Of a stretch of 64,000 nucleotides of DNA, positions 16,788-26,598 are shown one piece after another (position 1 is the stretch's first letter; each line of letters opens with the position of its first letter). The notes below the pieces were generated by a model. It saw nothing but the letters and a program-made list of their open reading frames with translations. It was not told the origin of the DNA and searched no databases. This DNA is from Bacillota bacterium (GTDB lineage: Bacteria > Bacillota > Clostridia > TANB77 > CAG-508), in assembly GCA_963929915.1 (NCBI GenBank), contig CAWVJY010000002.1, positions 17,798-81,797 on the forward strand, read 5' to 3'. The position numbers and the translations under genes are program-made.

Positions 16788-19097
16788 TTATTTTGCTTTT
16801 ACATCATATTCCATTACATGAACTTGAATAATTTCATGTTGGTAATCATCTATAATATGGTTGTATTGAAAAAATTCTTTCTTTGTTTCTTGTAAAGTAC
16901 AATTATTTAAATCAAGAAGTATTTCATCTGATACATCCATTCCCTTTGGCAATGTTTGATTAAAATTTTCAAAGAAAATAATATTAGAATAATATAACAT
17001 TGGCATTTTTTCTGGCACGTTTAAGCGATACAAATAAATTTCTTTTTCTCCTAAATTTTGTTCTATTGCCTTTTTTTGGTCTAGATGAAATAGTTGTAAG
17101 TTTTCTAATGAAATCGGTTTAGTTTTGGCAAGATAAATAGATAATTCATAAGGTGTGCTAATTTTGCAAAATGCTTCTTTTAGTAGTTTTAAATAATTTC
17201 TTAAAGTATCAATAAAGGTATCTAATTCTGTTTGCAAGGTAATATTTAAAATGTTATATTTATCTTTTTCTACCTCTCTATGTTTTTGATTATTTAGCGT
17301 TTTTATTTTGGTTTTATCTTCTGACATGCTTCCGAAAATGTCAAAATCTTTTGCCTGAATTACTTCTATATTATTCTCATATTCTTGTTTTAGTTGTTCT
17401 AATTCTTGCTGTAATATTTGTTTTTGCTCTTTGCTTAAATCTTTACTTTGGGTACTATTTAAAATTTGGCTAGCAGTAAGTACTTGTTTTATAGCAAAAA
17501 TAGCATCTGTTTCGTTTTTCGAAAATTTTCTTCTTTGTAATTCATCTACTTGTTTTCCTAATTCTTCTATATCTGTTTCATAATCAAAACTTTTTCCTAT
17601 TTTTTCTTTTTCTTTATTTTCCTCTTCTTCTCCTTCGTTTAAGCTAGGGAGCTCATCTTTGTTTGTGAATTTCCAGAATTCAAAAATACTTTTTTTATGG
17701 AGGTCTATTTCATTTAAATAGATATTGGCATTTTTTATTTTTCTTTCTAGATTTACTTTTTTTAATTCTAATGCCTTTTGGTCTAGTTCTAAATTTTTTA
17801 TCATTTTCTTTCTACCATCTAGTTTTGTACACACTTCTATTAAATCTTCTATGGTATAAAGTTTTTTATTTTCTTCTAGAATTGCTTCTTGCTTTTTAGG
17901 TTCTTCTTTTGGAACTTCTTTTTTATTTTTAGAACTATTTACAGGCTTTAATTCTTTTTTACGGTTAGAAAAGTAATACTTTATTTTTCCAAAAAAAGTT
18001 TTTTTACATTCCAAGAAAGTGGCAATTTGCCTTTGTTTGCTCAAATATTCTTCATTTTGTTTTTCTACTATTTGTTTTAAATCTTGTAATTTTTCTTGTG
18101 CCTCTTTTAATTTTCTTTCTTCTAAAGTAACTGCTATTTTCTTTTGATTCACTTGGTTTTGAATAAATTCTGTTAGTGTGTTATAGTAAATTGCTTTTTC
18201 CTCTTTTTCTGTTACATAATAAAAATCCATTCCACCTTTTTCATCTATTTTTATTTTAAACTGATAATCTTCTGGAAGGCCTGTTGCCAAAATAAATAAG
18301 GCTTTTAGTAGTTTATAAAACTCTTGTGCTTCTTCTTTGTTAGTAAATGTGACAACATAGTCACTTTCTATTTTTTCATAGACTTTTGCCTTTCCCACAA
18401 TGGTAAGTGACATTTTCTCTTTTTGATCATATACTTCATAAATGTTAGGCCATTCTTTGGTAAAATACCAAATATAGTTTTCTAAATCTGTAATTTGGCT
18501 TTTCACTAGATAATTTCCAGAATATTCTAAATGTGTAATAGGAACATAAATGAGCTCCTTCTTTCTAGCTTTTTTAGCCTCTATTTGTTTTTTTAAGAGA
18601 TAAAATAGAGCAACATTATTGGTTTCATTAATAGGTACTAACATAAAATATTGGTTTGCCACATCTGAATAGTAGATTTGCCAAATATAGTTATGTTCAT
18701 ATTTTATTTCATAAGGAATTTGGTTTTGTAACTGTTCTTGCTCTTTTTCAATTACTTTTAAATCTTCTAAATGCATATCATTTAGCAATTTTAGAAAAGC
18801 ATCAAAATATTCCAAATTTTCCTCTGTTTTAGAATCTAAAAATTGACTAATTGGTATTGCCAATTTATATTTTTCACTTAAATTGGTTAGCCTATCTGTT
18901 GGTGTTAACAAAATTTGAATTTGTGTAACATCTACATATTGGTATACTTTATAGCTCATATCATCATAAGCTTTAGAAGGTCTAAAAGAAAAGGGTGTAA
19001 ATTCTTTTAGAAATTTTGGTACCCTTTCCAAATTAAGTCCTATATATTGTAATTTTTCCTTTACTTTTTCTTTATCTTCTGCAATTTTTTCTAGCAT
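16788..19097 (-). CDS. large hypothetical protein (769 aa) with central coiled-coil regions
   Basis: Long uninterrupted ORF. AGGAGG RBS before ATG 19097 (MLEKIAEDKEK). No domain recognised. Confidence 0.7.
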   Translation of the reverse strand: MLEKIAEDKEKVKEKLQYIGLNLERVPKFLKEFTPFSFRPSKAYDDMSYKVYQYVDVTQIQILLTPTDRLTNLSEKYKLAIPISQFLDSKTEENLEYFDAFLKLLNDMHLEDLKVIEKEQEQLQNQIPYEIKYEHNYIWQIYYSDVANQYFMLVPINETNNVALFYLLKKQIEAKKARKKELIYVPITHLEYSGNYLVKSQITDLENYIWYFTKEWPNIYEVYDQKEKMSLTIVGKAKVYEKIESDYVVTFTNKEEAQEFYKLLKALFILATGLPEDYQFKIKIDEKGGMDFYYVTEKEEKAIYYNTLTEFIQNQVNQKKIAVTLEERKLKEAQEKLQDLKQIVEKQNEEYLSKQRQIATFLECKKTFFGKIKYYFSNRKKELKPVNSSKNKKEVPKEEPKKQEAILEENKKLYTIEDLIEVCTKLDGRKKMIKNLELDQKALELKKVNLERKIKNANIYLNEIDLHKKSIFEFWKFTNKDELPSLNEGEEEENKEKEKIGKSFDYETDIEELGKQVDELQRRKFSKNETDAIFAIKQVLTASQILNSTQSKDLSKEQKQILQQELEQLKQEYENNIEVIQAKDFDIFGSMSEDKTKIKTLNNQKHREVEKDKYNILNITLQTELDTFIDTLRNYLKLLKEAFCKISTPYELSIYLAKTKPISLENLQLFHLDQKKAIEQNLGEKEIYLYRLNVPEKMPMLYYSNIIFFENFNQTLPKGMDVSDEILLDLNNCTLQETKKEFFQYNHIIDDYQHEIIQVHVMEYDVKAK

Positions 19098-22488: not shown

Positions 22489-22761
22489 TTAAGTAAAGAA
22501 ATGAGAAAATGTCCCAAAAATTTCAAAATAATTGCTTCTTACTTTTCCATATAGCATAACTAAATCCCATTTTTTTAAATTTCTATAAATATAGTCTGCT
22601 ACATCATCATATGCTCTTGCATAAATAATGTTATTATCCTTTTCTATAATAAGTTTCACAATAGATGTATGTTTTCTACTAATGCTTTTTTCTTTTGTAT
22701 TATAAATAAATTCTAATTTTATTTCATTTTTTATATTTCCACCTATAAATCCAATATTCAT
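22489..22761 (-). CDS. small hypothetical protein (90 aa), possibly OB-fold/SSB-like
   Basis: ATG 22761 has RBS GGGAGAA. ARAYDDVADYIYRNLKKWDLVMLYGKVRS loosely resembles the SSB OB-fold segment (W..lAE.v..yLkKG..v.v.G.l..). Lies downstream of the DGR TR on the same strand. Confidence 0.4.
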   Translation of the reverse strand: MNIGFIGGNIKNEIKLEFIYNTKEKSISRKHTSIVKLIIEKDNNIIYARAYDDVADYIYRNLKKWDLVMLYGKVRSNYFEIFGTFSHFFT

Positions 22762-23047
22762 AAGTTTTTCTCCCATTCTTAATAACATAAAAGTAATACA
22801 TTCAGCATAATCTATACTCGATTTTCTTTTTATAATATAAAACCAAACATTTCATAACTTACTAATATTACTTTTATTGATACATTTTTACCTACTTACC
22901 ATATCTTTGTATTAATTTCATCATGTACCTTATCATTACTGTATATAATGCCAATTAATATGATTTTTTGGAAGGAATAAATCTCTTTAATACTAATACT
23001 ATCACTGAATATATTCCGTAAAATATATTATCTGGAAATTGTATTAG

Positions 23048-23187
23048 AGTGTGGGTCTGGTGGAGATGTTGGAATTGTTGTCGTTGTTCGGATTGTTGTT
23101 GTTGCGGTTGGAAGCTGGATTGTTAGAGCCGGAATTGTTGTAATTGCCACCACGATTAACACGATTGTTGGTGTTGTTGGCCTTTTG
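23048..23187 (-). repeat. DGR template repeat (TR)
   Basis: 140 nt, gap-free alignment to 25349-25488. The sense (minus) strand is rich in AAC/AAT codons. All 20 differences from the VR are at sense-strand adenines of this copy. Non-coding location 100 nt downstream of the RT stop. Confidence 0.93.
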
Positions 23188-23288: not shown

Positions 23289-24329
23289 TTACTCTATATA
23301 AAATATTTTTTTCGTCAAATTATAGATATTGGCATAATGAATATACCCCATATGTCCTGCTAAATACTTTTTAGCTTCTTTGCTACTTATTTTTCCACTT
23401 TTTATATTGTATTTTAATTCTTTTACTTTTTTCTTAAGTTTTCTTTTTCCCTTATCTCGTATTTTTAGCCTATATTCATTAATTTTATATCCACAAAAAT
23501 TCACTCCTTGTTTGCTTTTAAATATTTGTGTTTTTTCATTAAGTTCTAGTTCTAAATGGAATTTTAAGAACTTCTTAATATTTTTTAAATATGTTTTAGC
23601 TTCTTTTTTTGTTTTTGCAAATAATACCATATCATCGAGATAACGAAAGTAATACTTCACTTTCAAACTATGCTTTATATATTGATCCAATTCATTTAAA
23701 TAGATATTAGCAAAAGTTTGAGATGTATAATTTCCTATTGGTAAACCTTTTCTTTTACCTAATTGGTTTTCTAATTCTTCTTTTGTGCAGTTTGAATAAA
23801 TAATTTCTTGTAATAACCATAATAGCTTTTTATCTGTTATTTTTCTTTTTAATATTTGAAACAAAATATCTTTATCAATATGATCAAAATATTTTCTAAT
23901 ATCCATTTTTAAAATATAATAATTATCCCAAATTCTTTTACAATGTTTCATTGTGTTTTGTACATCAATGCATGCTTTATGCATTCCTCTATTTTTAATG
24001 CAAGCATAGGTATGAAATATAAAGCTTTTTTCGAAATACTGTTTTAAAAAATTATCTACTACCCATCTATGTACAATTCTATCTATATATCTGCTTTTTT
24101 CTATTCTTCTTAATTTTTGTTCTGTTACATAAAAGGTAGTATATCCACCATGCCTATAACTTCCTGTTTTTAATTGTTCATAAAGCCACATAATATATTC
24201 TTCTTGTTTTAAGTTAAATAAGATAATTTCTTTTCTATAGCCTTTACCTTTTCTACTTAACTTATGGGCTTGCATTAGATTTTCATAATTCAGCTTTTTG
24301 TCATATTCATTTTTTATTTTTCTTGCCAT
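23289..24329 (-). CDS. DGR reverse transcriptase
   Basis: RT motifs RKYFDHID, LPIGNYTSQTFANIYL (DGR-type [LIV]GxxxSQ signature) and YLDDMVLF (YxDD). 346 aa with no maturase or endonuclease extension. Confidence 0.92.
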   Translation of the reverse strand: MARKIKNEYDKKLNYENLMQAHKLSRKGKGYRKEIILFNLKQEEYIMWLYEQLKTGSYRHGGYTTFYVTEQKLRRIEKSRYIDRIVHRWVVDNFLKQYFEKSFIFHTYACIKNRGMHKACIDVQNTMKHCKRIWDNYYILKMDIRKYFDHIDKDILFQILKRKITDKKLLWLLQEIIYSNCTKEELENQLGKRKGLPIGNYTSQTFANIYLNELDQYIKHSLKVKYYFRYLDDMVLFAKTKKEAKTYLKNIKKFLKFHLELELNEKTQIFKSKQGVNFCGYKINEYRLKIRDKGKRKLKKKVKELKYNIKSGKISSKEAKKYLAGHMGYIHYANIYNLTKKIFYIE

Positions 24330-24666
24330 AATATTTAATAAGTCCTCCTACTAGTTTTCCTATTTCAGAAATGTATGACATAGCTATATTAAATTTTTTC
24401 TCATCTATCCATCTATTTTTTACCATCAGTCTTAAGAATATCCTTTGGCAATTTAGCTCTACATCTATTTTGTCTATATAATATAGCCTTTTGCTTTCAT
24501 CTATTTTTACAATATACATTACATTTTTTAGCATTTCATACATGGATACCTTATATTCATTACCTATACTAAATTTTTCTGTTCTTGGTAATTTTATTAG
24601 TAGATTTAGCATGTATTCTATATATGTTTCTACTTTTGGTATTAATAATAATCCTTGTTCTTCCAT
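24307..24666 (-). CDS. avd: DGR accessory variability determinant (Avd-like four-helix-bundle protein)
   Basis: 119-aa basic helical protein. LPRTEKFSIGNEY and C-terminal EIGKLVGGLIKY resemble bAvd / 23S rRNA intervening-sequence-protein family motifs. Overlaps the RT start by 23 nt. Confidence 0.8.
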   Translation of the reverse strand: MEEQGLLLIPKVETYIEYMLNLLIKLPRTEKFSIGNEYKVSMYEMLKNVMYIVKIDESKRLYYIDKIDVELNCQRIFLRLMVKNRWIDEKKFNIAMSYISEIGKLVGGLIKYYGKKNKK

Positions 24667-24689
24667 TGTTTTTTATACCATTGTATATT

Positions 24690-25106
24690 TTATAAATTTT
24701 TTATTTTTGCTATTTTTTCGTCTATTAAGTTATGATTTTGTTTAACATTCCAAGAACATTTTGCACAATTAAAACATTTTCTACTTTCTGCTACTGGTGA
24801 TAATATAATTCTTTTTAAAAGTTCATATTTCCTTTCTCTATTTTCTTTTTTGGGATAATATTCATAAATTGCTACAGATATATTTTTTGCTATTATTTTT
24901 CTTATAAATTTATCAATTTTTGCAACTGGTATTGCACACTTACATATATTTTTAGAAATACATATATTATTTAATCCAAATTGTTCTCGTAGTAATACTG
25001 CATCTTTTCCTACTCCATAAAAGAAAATTCCGCAACGTATTAATACCAAATAGTCAATATTTTCTGGCTTATTTTGTATTTCTTCCACAATTTTTAAAAA
25101 CTTCAT
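24690..25106 (-). CDS. small MutS-domain-I-like DGR accessory protein (MSL-type), 138 aa
   Basis: From ATG 25106 (RBS GGAGAA): YLVLIRCGIFFYGVGKDAVLLREQFGLN...CAIPVAKIDKFIRKIIAKNISVAIYE parallels the MutS mismatch-binding domain I pattern (l.f.r.GdFYE.f..DA......L.l.......aGvP.......l..Li..G..VAi.eQ). C-terminal CxxC..C cluster. Confidence 0.5.
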   Translation of the reverse strand: MKFLKIVEEIQNKPENIDYLVLIRCGIFFYGVGKDAVLLREQFGLNNICISKNICKCAIPVAKIDKFIRKIIAKNISVAIYEYYPKKENRERKYELLKRIILSPVAESRKCFNCAKCSWNVKQNHNLIDEKIAKIKNL

Positions 25107-25246
25107 GATTTTCTCCTTTCCTTGTGTTGTATATATTTTTTGACAAAAAAATATATACCACGCAAGTGGTATACCACGCAAGTTAATACTTTCTTGTGGC
25201 ATTTTGCCTTTGGGCAAATGCCAACAAGTAAAGTATTGATTACGTG

Positions 25247-25267
25247 GTACTCCCACATGGGGAGTAC
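25247..25267 (-). other. GC-rich hairpin about 70 nt downstream of the VR / target stop codon
   Basis: GTACTCCC-ACAT-GGGGAGTAC. A stem-loop downstream of the VR is a known feature of DGR target loci. Confidence 0.5.
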
Positions 25268-25335
25268 ACGCAATCCGTTTGTTCTAATTTTTACCCTTTA
25301 GTCAAGTACTATGTTAACTTATCCACTACTCAGTG

Positions 25336-26598
25336 TTACATTATGTAAAGTGTGGGTCTGGTGGAGATGTCGGAATTGTTGTCGTAGAGCGGATGGTTGT
25401 GGCTGCGGTAGGAAGCTGGAGAGTAAGAGCCGGAACTGTAGTAACTGCCACCACGAATAACACGACTGTAGGTGTTGAAGGCCTCTTGGGTCCATTCCGC
25501 ACAATTTCCTGCAAAATCATAAATATTATTTGCTTGCCAACTTTCTTTATATCCTGCTGTTTGTTTTGTTCCTGCTCCTTCTTCTGTATTATCACTATAA
25601 TTTCCCCAACTTGTGGAATTTTCTATATCATATCCTGCTCCTGATAACCAATTACATACTTCATCCCATTGGTTTACATAAATCATTGTTGTTTTTGCTA
25701 TTATTTCACTTTCTTGTTTACCTGAGTTATTAATTATTTTTGTACATGCCGCTTTTAAATTATACCAATTTTGATCTGTTATTACTGTTCCGCCTTTTGC
25801 TACTGTTGGGCTATTTATATCTCCTGTTAGTTCATATCTTCCTATATAAAATCCTCCATATTTTTCTATACTATCATGAATTTCTTGGTACTCATTTACC
25901 ATATCTTGTGCAAATTCTTGCACACTACTTGCTCCATTTATGATACTATAATATTGACTATCTGTATCATATTTCGTTACTAAATCTGGCTCTCTATAAC
26001 CTGTTGTTCCTGGTTTGTCCATTGTATAAATACTAGATTTACTGTATATACTTGTGGTTACTCCTGTTCCTCCTGATAAAGCTACTGTTTCTTCTGTATA
26101 CATTTGTGCTAGCCTTTCTGCACTTACTGGTATCCATACAAATTCATTATTGGTTCCATCTTGTTTAATTACAAATCCTTCTTCTACTTTTTGTTCTTCT
26201 TCTACTGTGGATGCTGTAAATCCATTTGGTATAGGTACATTTACTGATGGTTCATCTTTTGATGGGAATGGTGTTACTTTGCTTAAATCCCAACTTTCTG
26301 GTACTTCTGGACCTTCTGGTGTAACTCCTCCACCTGTTCCAGTTTCATTATTCATTATACTATTTAATTCATTTACTAAATTTTGAATTTCTTGTTGTTC
26401 ATTAGCTATTGCACCATCCCAGGTGTTTTTTGCTTCTTGGGCTGTTCTTATAATTCCATCTTCTCCTAGCAACATATTTATGGTTACTCCTGATAAAATC
26501 AAAAGAATTACTATGGTTACTACTAAGGCTATTAGAGTTATACCTTTTTCATTTTTGCCTTTTCTATATTTTATGCCTTCTTTTTCTCTTCTTTGCAT
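25336..26598 (-). CDS. DGR target protein: prepilin-like N-terminus plus FGE-sulfatase/C-type-lectin-fold C-terminal domain
   Basis: Basic leader then KG/ITLIALVVTIVILLILSGV (type IV prepilin-like cleavage and hydrophobic segment). C-terminal GFYIGRYELT...WDEVCNWL...NCAEWTQE...RVIRGGSY pattern of the FGE/SUMF1-type CLec fold. The VR occupies the last 47 codons. Confidence 0.85.
   Translation of the reverse strand: MQRREKEGIKYRKGKNEKGITLIALVVTIVILLILSGVTINMLLGEDGIIRTAQEAKNTWDGAIANEQQEIQNLVNELNSIMNNETGTGGGVTPEGPEVPESWDLSKVTPFPSKDEPSVNVPIPNGFTASTVEEEQKVEEGFVIKQDGTNNEFVWIPVSAERLAQMYTEETVALSGGTGVTTSIYSKSSIYTMDKPGTTGYREPDLVTKYDTDSQYYSIINGASSVQEFAQDMVNEYQEIHDSIEKYGGFYIGRYELTGDINSPTVAKGGTVITDQNWYNLKAACTKIINNSGKQESEIIAKTTMIYVNQWDEVCNWLSGAGYDIENSTSWGNYSDNTEEGAGTKQTAGYKESWQANNIYDFAGNCAEWTQEAFNTYSRVIRGGSYYSSGSYSPASYRSHNHPLYDNNSDISTRPTLYIM
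25349..25488 (-). repeat. DGR variable repeat (VR)
   Basis: Last 47 codons of the target gene (QEAFNTYSRVIRGGSYYSSGSYSPASYRSHNHPLYDNNSDISTRPTL). 120/140 identical to the TR, with mismatches only opposite TR adenines. The 3'-terminal 22 nt are identical to the TR (IMH-like). Confidence 0.93.

Follow-up and report, generated by a model that had tools for sequence, protein, structure and literature searches.

A 64,000-nucleotide stretch of DNA from a Bacillota bacterium (assembly GCA_963929915.1, contig CAWVJY010000002.1, forward-strand positions 17,798 to 81,797), referred to here as the window, contains a diversity-generating retroelement (DGR). Its cassette consists, in order, of a target gene carrying the variable repeat (VR), a MutS-like (MSL) gene, avd, a reverse transcriptase (RT) gene, the template repeat (TR), and a small open reading frame (ORF) with an oligonucleotide/oligosaccharide-binding (OB) fold, all on the minus strand. 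The MSL gene is the subject of this report. It is almost certainly a DGR accessory gene of the MSL class that encodes a stand-alone homologue of MutS domain I. This identity is supported by a sequence profile, by the predicted fold, and by genomic association. The features of the gene, in window coordinates, are listed below.

24690..25106, minus strand: MSL gene, 138 amino acids (aa), stand-alone MutS domain I homologue assigned to the Cys4 subtype (ORF, Pfam, AlphaFold2, Foldseek, and the ratio of nonsynonymous to synonymous substitution rates, dN/dS)
25111..25118, minus strand: ribosome-binding site (RBS) AAGGAGAA, 5 nucleotides ahead of the MSL ATG (sequence)
25017..25031, minus strand: GIFFY, residues 26-30, equivalent of the MutS G-D-F-Y-E motif (alignment to Taq MutS and family conservation)
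24939..24962, minus strand: CISKNICK, residues 49-56, beta-hairpin with near-invariant C49, C55, and K56 (99%, 99%, and 97%; conservation, with strands 48-51 and 54-60 in the models)
24756..24776, minus strand: CFNCAKC, residues 111-117, C-terminal knuckle with C114 and C117 conserved family-wide (conservation; predicted local distance difference test score, pLDDT, of 89-97 over residues 101-120)

Domain Identity, Conserved Residues, and Subtypes

The MSL ORF begins at the ATG at 25106-25104 and ends at the TAA at 24692-24690. The original prediction, a note made from the sequence alone, had placed the true start at this ATG behind an RBS. That placement holds, as 86% of 79 near-full-length relatives begin at Met1 of the alignment and a strong RBS, AAGGAGAA, lies upstream. 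The ORF finder and some gene callers (P0002, P0007-9) also give a 188-aa reading from the GTG at 25256. It was discarded because relatives begin at the aligned Met1, an RBS precedes the ATG at 25106, and the extension crosses a terminator-like hairpin. The dN/dS of the gene is 0.20-0.22 when compared with homologues of 74-83% identity, and purifying selection is evident from these alignments. The isoelectric point (pI) of the window MSL is 9.5, and the mean of 64 family members is 8.5 +/- 1.1.

A Pfam scan of the MSL protein identifies MutS_I as the sole domain, with the protein ending at residue 138. The match reaches 35.6 bits (E=1.2e-8), where the curated cut-off is 20.6, and aligns residues 13-95 with profile positions 11-99 of 113. 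The single MSL sequence gives weak MSH3 matches only when searched against PDB sequences. A 64-sequence family profile matches Taq MutS residues 18-100 (E=8e-5), and also detects domain I of the canonical ~870-aa MutS in 354 of 401 Clostridia genomes at E values of 1e-8 to 1e-12. No dedicated MSL family was found in NCBIfam or PHROGs, where the search returned sub-threshold MutS matches and one spurious weak match to MecI.

Two AlphaFold2 (AF2) models of the protein were built. The model from a 13-sequence alignment has a pLDDT of 80.6. The model from a 64-sequence alignment (m77b09b2ac9c5) has a pLDDT of 93.8, a predicted template modelling score (pTM) of 0.84, and no disordered segment. When both models were compared with the PDB using Foldseek, the top 50 matches were solely to domain I of MutS, MSH2, MSH3, and MSH6, with a probability of 1.00, E values down to 2.7e-6, 97-111 aligned columns, and a root-mean-square deviation of ~2.7-4.8 A. 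The likeness to MutS domain I claimed in the original prediction, which had proposed the Pfam profile (PF01624) and a structural superposition as checks, is therefore significant by both.

The GIFFY motif occupies the place of the MutS mismatch wedge. In the profile alignment F28 falls on Taq F39 and Y30 falls on Taq E41; these we take to be E. coli F36 and E38 by standard numbering. Among the 79 near-full-length members G26 and F28 are conserved in 100%, and position 29 is F or Y in 100%. Position 30, the equivalent of Glu38, is V, I, Y, N, or T (usually Ile or Val) and rarely E, and is Tyr in the window MSL. Also highly conserved outside of the motif are G33, D35, A36, L39, K56, P60, and Y81. 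By these alignments the wedge Phe is kept and its partner Glu is lost family-wide, which agrees with the original prediction that the Phe-x-Glu motif is altered; in the window MSL, F28 is retained and Tyr30 replaces the Glu. Mismatches can be bound without the Glu, because the E38A and E38Q forms of E. coli MutS were crystallised on a G.T mismatch (1wbb and 1wbd, both among the Foldseek matches).

Four cysteines are conserved in two pairs. The first pair, C49 and C55 (99% each in the 79 members), lies in the beta-hairpin; the second, C114 and C117 (86% each), lies in the C-terminal knuckle. C111 (27%) and C57 (37%) are not family features. A pattern of C-x(4-7)-C-K plus [C/H]-x2-C is present in 34 of the 62 MSL ORFs of the loci examined. 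At least in conservation, the C-x2-C knuckle appears to be paired with the C-x5-C-K hairpin of the core. In the 64-sequence model the pLDDT is 89-97 over residues 101-120 and 90-94 over the last helix (118-137), and the C-terminal part is therefore predicted to be packed on the domain and not to be a floppy tail. The four cysteines probably form a Cys4 zinc site, which is the simplest reading of their conservation, and they have the two pairs of conserved metal-ligand residues expected of a zinc-ribbon-like Cys4 module. The CFNCAKC cluster of the original prediction is a real motif, but only its C114 and C117 are family-wide. The near-invariant C49 and C55 are, from the alignment, an addition to that cluster. 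In the region equivalent to the hairpin, the host MutS reads GKDCGQEERAPMCGIP. C49 and C57 have counterparts in clostridial MutS (GKDCG...PMCGIP), and C55 is new.

The MSL proteins can be sorted by sequence into two subtypes, tail-type and Cys4-type, and the window gene is Cys4-type. A tail profile was constructed from the last ~50 residues of the host MutS and ~19 other clostridial MutS proteins, the tails of which share the pattern ...I..I..IDINxLTPIEALNxLxxLK.... Tail-type MSLs of related genomes match this profile over their last ~40 residues, with eight of 12 at E values of 3e-8 to 1e-4 and a ninth at 2e-3. The C49/C55 and CxxC cysteines are absent from these copies. Of 16 Cys4-type proteins, the window MSL among them, not one matches the tail profile (best E 0.015). 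The window MSL and the C-terminal alignment of its family show no similarity to the tail profile, with negative hidden Markov model (HMM) scores and an hhalign probability of 0.2-0.3%. An origin of the window MSL C-terminus as a relic of the MutS tail was accordingly discarded (host MutS HMM, hhalign, and tail HMM); it does hold for the sister subtype. The tail-type MSLs belong to the same bacterial order and share with the Cys4-type the domain I core, the G-x-F-[FY]-hydrophobic motif, the loss of the Glu, and the association with a DGR RT. The arrangement of the two subtypes differs. Once loci fetched twice were removed, 24 of 26 Cys4-type copies form a co-directional MSL-avd-RT unit. Tail-type copies adjoin the RT in ~10 of 12 cases, often on the opposite strand or 2-3 kb away.

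The Cassette and Its Distribution

The remaining features of the cassette are as follows.

25336..26598, minus strand: DGR target gene, 420 aa (pilin-like methylation motif at the N-terminus and FGE-sulfatase/C-lectin-type match at the C-terminus, both weak)
25346..25488, minus strand: VR, 143 nucleotides (repeat pair with the TR)
25153..25174, minus strand: terminator-like hairpin with a 9-bp stem, TTGC loop, and T-run, GTATACCAC-TTGC-GTGGTATAT (between the target gene stop and the MSL RBS)
24307..24666, minus strand: avd, 119 aa, beginning 23 nucleotides past the MSL stop (bAvd PF22296, E=1.3e-16)
23289..24329, minus strand: DGR RT, 346 aa, overlapping the end of avd (RVT_1, E=2.5e-22)
23045..23187, minus strand: TR, 143 nucleotides, downstream of the RT (repeat pair with the VR)
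22489..22761, minus strand: small ORF resembling OB-fold or single-stranded DNA-binding (SSB) proteins, 90 aa from the ATG at 22761 (weak Pfam OB-fold match; conserved downstream of the TR in Cys4-type cassettes)

The locus is a complete DGR. The TR and VR show 21 differences, 20 of which are at TR adenines, and together with the Pfam matches of bAvd and RVT_1 this bears out the DGR context that had been assigned to the MSL gene. Activity was assessed by comparing the assembled contigs of four independent gut metagenomes, two of them labelled chicken gut, over positions 24300-25700. The MSL gene has one substitution in this comparison, and the VR differs at many sites and broke the assemblies. 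Among the variable VR sites listed, 17 of 17 are TR-adenine positions. The TR is 38% adenine on that strand, which gives a chance of ~1e-7 for 17 of 17. The DGR is thus active in nature, because its VR differs between metagenomes at TR-adenine positions only, among the sites listed.

The target protein begins with a hydrophobic helix and a type IV pilin-like N-terminal methylation motif that scores under the cut-off (E=8e-4). What the DGR diversifies may therefore be a pilin-like or pseudopilin protein of the cell surface, its variable tip being of the C-lectin type. The hairpin at 25153-25174 may limit transcriptional read-through from the target gene to the MSL-avd-RT unit. In the DGR of the Bordetella phage a hairpin/cruciform element serves target recognition; the hairpin of the window lies ~170 nucleotides from the VR end and is too distant to resemble that element.

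The OB-fold/SSB-like ORF is located ~285 nucleotides downstream of the TR. All eight close loci have a homologue of 78-92 aa at this position, as do 12 of the 20 loci sampled across the order and the metagenome contigs. These homologues share the pattern MN(l)c.l.GKii..i.fKFIy...AYn..AD..Y and are far commoner in Cys4-type than in tail-type cassettes. Two overlapping ORFs make up the DGR RT in several related cassettes (L090, L091, L098, L102, L104, L106, and L062/L063), a layout suggestive of an apparent frameshift. The five cassette genes of the window itself contain no CGG codon and are intact.

A profile search of 1.84 billion representative proteins identified an MSL family of 319 clusters (50% identity) at E<=1e-3, and 121 at E<=1e-10. 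The best 150 of the 319 clusters are all small proteins of 56-269 aa. Eight reference-genome loci, all from metagenome-assembled genomes of uncultured Clostridia, have the order target-MSL-avd-RT-(TR)-small ORF in eight of eight cases, one of them cut by a contig end and one a decaying copy. A further 15 stand-alone copies were examined in related genomes; ten are within ~1 kb of a DGR RT, and the rest are pseudogenes, fragments, or lone copies. When 20 copies were sampled across the score range within the order, 18 had a DGR RT within 3 kb and 13 had the canonical layout. Contig look-ups of diverse metagenomic members returned four MSL-bAvd-RVT_1 arrangements, one RT-MSL arrangement, one truncated member without a nearby RT, and a seventh that is a doubtful member. 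Altogether ~80-90% of MSL copies lie within 3 kb of a DGR RT, and MSL almost always comes first in an MSL-avd-RT-TR unit. With one or few RT genes per 1-2 Mb genome, the adjacency expected by chance is of the order of 1%. The original prediction would have been undermined by homologues occurring mostly outside of DGR loci. They are overwhelmingly inside such loci (eight of eight, 10 of 15, and 18 of 20).

The family is restricted in its lineage. An even sample of 400 genomes of the phylum contained no strong match (E<=1e-13) besides the genome of the window itself. In 400 genomes of the class, stand-alone copies are confined to the family to which the window belongs and to one other family in the same order. 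That order has at least one MSL copy in 125 of 301 genomes (42%) and in 28 of 43 genera. The genomes of the order are small (~1-2 Mb) and are those of gut Clostridia, and the sequencing runs that contain the window locus are mostly chicken-gut metagenomes. A tblastn search of MSL against 50,697 phage records returned no match and no sign of a phage-borne subtype.

One 1.8-Mb genome of the order (G1019) has six MSL copies. It is among several genomes of 1.1-1.8 Mb with four to six MSL matches, the others being G930, G940, G952, and G1044 with four each. Such numbers presumably represent several DGR cassettes, a very high DGR load for genomes of this size. Fused ORFs also occur. In two of them (P0170, 333 aa; P0191, 227 aa) MSL is joined in frame to the N-terminus of the RT and avd is missing. 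In a third (L093, 3956-4735) MSL and Avd form a single 260-aa ORF with no RT nearby. These could be deletion derivatives or hints of physical association. Several metagenomic MSL-DGR cassettes (L057, L060/L061, L062, and L067) are directly upstream of gyrA, followed by a gene with IstB_IS21/Bac_DnaA Pfam matches, which suggests a conserved chromosomal insertion neighbourhood near replication genes.

A MutS_I-like domain with an intact GDFYE was also found inside giant frames of ~2,850-2,900 aa in three other Clostridia genomes (L023, G251:C14:101955-105215; G091:C6:10424-10732; G380:C7:36113-36376). The flanks of these domains resemble large multidomain proteins of conjugative elements, another case of a mobile element with an isolated MutS head.

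Possible Role of the MSL Protein

DGRs create dense mismatches, and in published work most of the diversity that these produce is erased by the MutS of the host. In a Bacteroides DGR, deletion of the host mutS raised VR mutagenesis 5-10 fold with the pattern unchanged, from which the authors infer an all-or-nothing repair of the heteroduplex (10.1101/2024.11.15.621889). The same work lists Msl in three of five Bacteroides DGRs (Bfr/Bth/Bun), and the knockout was made in a DGR outside of those listed as encoding Msl. A 2026 preprint describes a DGR operated in E. coli with a single-strand annealing protein and a dominant-negative MutL, and cites the MutS-like genes of natural DGRs as rationale (10.64898/2026.07.21.739853). 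Among the DGR accessory classes, an obvious connection with the recognition of mismatches exists for MSL alone.

The host genome of the window has a MutS with an intact GDFYE and a MutL. A role for MSL as a locally acting, natural factor against mismatch repair (MMR) can be proposed. The RT/Avd complex would make adenine-mutagenised cDNA, and pairing of this cDNA with the VR would give an intermediate with many mismatches, which the host MutS-MutL would revert to the parental sequence. MSL would occupy the mismatches or the distorted heteroduplex by means of its Phe wedge and would keep the intermediate shielded up to the point at which the new sequence is fixed by replication. It would shield the heteroduplex and not license repair, because it is without the Glu, the ATPase, and any module that contacts MutL or MutS. 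The putative zinc site would staple the isolated domain into a stable fold or add a DNA-binding surface. We infer this mechanism as the likeliest role of MSL, and consider it a good possibility that falls somewhat short of being probable. The original prediction had proposed that the protein might protect or resolve cDNA/target heteroduplexes. Such a role is plausible and agrees with the published 5-10 fold lowering of DGR output by host MutS (10.1101/2024.11.15.621889). Resolving is less likely than protecting because the window MSL has no ATPase, no MutL-contacting domains, and, unlike the other subtype, no MutS tail.

Several points weigh against protection of the heteroduplex. An isolated MutS domain I is expected to bind DNA weakly, as the clamp domains supply most of the affinity, and a monomeric MSL of 138 aa may therefore compete poorly. 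Compensation for this weak binding would have to come from the zinc knuckle, from the basic charge of the protein (pI 9.5), or from partner proteins. The binding of zinc and the closeness of the four cysteines are themselves putative. The mutS effect was seen in a DGR outside of the listed Msl carriers, so MSL is unnecessary for DGR function in general. The presence of MMR in MSL hosts is uninformative, because MutS occurs in ~88% of the sampled Clostridia in any case. In the searchable literature no experiment on an MSL was found. Finally, the tight coupling to avd and RT and the MSL-RT and MSL-Avd fusions fit a role inside the RT complex equally well.

In that role MSL would be a subunit or cofactor of the complex of RT, Avd, and TR RNA. 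Its ligand would be the mismatched RNA:cDNA hybrid, or the primer terminus left by a misincorporation opposite adenine, and it would aid extension past mismatches or stabilise the cDNA without acting on host repair. The position of MSL at the head of the MSL-avd-RT unit is in keeping with this, as are the 23 nucleotides between the MSL stop and the avd start, the overlap of these ORFs in many relatives, the basic pI (9.5; family mean 8.5), and the in-frame fusions (P0170, P0191, and L093). RTs with a C-terminal MutS_I-like extension have been reported as well (Wu et al., PMC5758913). The fusion ORFs, however, are few and on short contigs, and could be deletions, and the tail-type MSLs, often on the opposite strand and 2-3 kb from the RT, speak against an obligatory co-assembly. 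Only ~4% of DGRs carry MSL. In most DGRs, including the biochemically reconstituted Bordetella phage system, RT and Avd suffice for adenine-mutagenised cDNA. A cofactor role is considered rather unlikely.

A further alternative is that MSL recognises distorted DNA at the target, for example a D-loop, a flap, a hairpin/cruciform, or the junction of cDNA and VR, and helps to guide or steady the pairing of the cDNA with the VR, serving homing efficiency or targeting rather than evasion of repair. The closest structural matches of MSL are to domain I of MSH3, a protein that recognises loops and not base mismatches. Across the family the discriminating Glu has been lost, such that base-mismatch specificity may not be the selected property, and the conserved small OB-fold/SSB-like gene of the cassette suggests the handling of single-stranded intermediates. 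The invariant Phe in its conserved G-x-F-[FY] context is, however, a mismatch-stacking element, and no conserved hairpin is directly beside the VR, the sole strong one being terminator-like and ~170 nucleotides downstream. Binding of this kind is therefore judged improbable. Less probable still, and by a wide distance from likely, is that MSL recruits or redirects host MMR toward the cDNA strand, in a strand-biased conversion that would resolve the heteroduplex. A MutS-derived module does adjoin a system that generates mismatches, and the sister subtype keeps a MutS C-terminal tail that could in principle join MutS oligomers. The window MSL, without connector, ATPase, or MutS tail, has no known surface for contact with MutL or MutS, and in published data MutS opposes DGR mutagenesis (10.1101/2024.11.15.621889). 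The last alternative, a decaying mutS fragment captured by chance and without function, could account for the related copies that are pseudogenes or fragments (L050, L052, and L055) and for the stops inside several matches. It is already effectively refuted by the conservation data: a dN/dS of ~0.2, 319 clusters at 50% identity with all of the best 150 small, presence in 42% of the genomes of the order in up to six copies with a fixed gene order, new family-specific invariant residues, and a confident, compact AF2 fold.

Protection of the heteroduplex can be extended to include the neighbouring small ORF. The Cys4-type MSL and the mini-OB/SSB-like protein may together be this DGR lineage's own toolkit for cDNA integration, in which MSL would be a zinc-stapled, signalling-dead mismatch binder and a local inhibitor of MMR. 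In function the pair would resemble the combination of single-strand annealing protein and dominant-negative MutL with which engineers had to supplement DGRs for them to work in E. coli. This extension is put forward tentatively. If true, it could explain the spread of the cassette to 42% of the sampled genomes in one MMR-proficient order of gut Clostridia.

The window locus is a good test case for these possibilities. It is a compact, active element with a short MSL of confident predicted fold, in which F28 and the four cysteines can be mutated, and the sister tail-type subtype offers a natural comparison for the Cys4-type. A shield against repair, if it is one, would be a small and portable means of obtaining higher yields in DGR-based and oligo-based genome editing.

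Comparison with Known Systems

MSL is one of four DGR accessory classes described by Wu et al. 2018 (NAR 46:11, PMC5758913), who identified 16 among 372 DGRs (~4%). These MSLs are 112-283 aa in length, have a pI of 7.2 +/- 1.7, and occur always with avd and never with HRDC ("Architecture D"); their function was left open. The statement in the original prediction that small MSL ORFs of unknown role appear in DGR surveys is accurate in this respect. The window MSL falls within the size range and has the MutS homology (138 aa; MutS_I at 35.6 bits). It lies inside a DGR cassette with adenine-specific TR/VR differences, and avd is present with no HRDC in the cassette ORFs, to which the scan was limited. 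Its pI of 9.5 departs from the near-neutral value of the published members, which is a descriptive and not a defining trait of the class.

The window MSL thus belongs to a class that is already catalogued, and its novelty is limited. Like the published MSLs (those of Wu et al. and of the Bacteroides Bfr/Bth/Bun DGRs) it is a small MutS homologue in an avd cassette. It is set apart at the level of description, as the published accounts consulted mention neither the Cys4 signature, the loss of the Glu, nor the two subtypes. Added here are the split into Cys4 and tail subtypes, the finding that throughout the family the Phe is kept and the Glu lost, and the high, lineage-restricted prevalence of the family together with the activity of the window element.

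Canonical MutS (that of E. coli, of Taq, and the 892-aa protein of the host) shares with the window MSL the fold and ~80 alignable residues. Both keep the Gly-x-Phe-[Phe/Tyr], G-x-D-A, and G-[IV]-P elements. Unlike canonical MutS, the window MSL has neither domains II-V (connector, core, clamp, and ABC ATPase) nor the tail, and Glu38 of the Phe-x-Glu motif is replaced. Its hairpin is shortened and has gained C55 and K56, and a CxxC knuckle and a helix have been added.

Two laboratory systems resemble the window MSL by functional analogy only. The E38A and E38Q mutants of E. coli MutS demonstrate that the MutS head can bind a G.T mismatch in the absence of the Glu. Engineered DGR systems in E. 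coli suppress MMR with a dominant-negative MutL (E32K) to allow DGR-type editing. These are laboratory mutants of full-length repair proteins, whereas MSL is a natural stand-alone domain.

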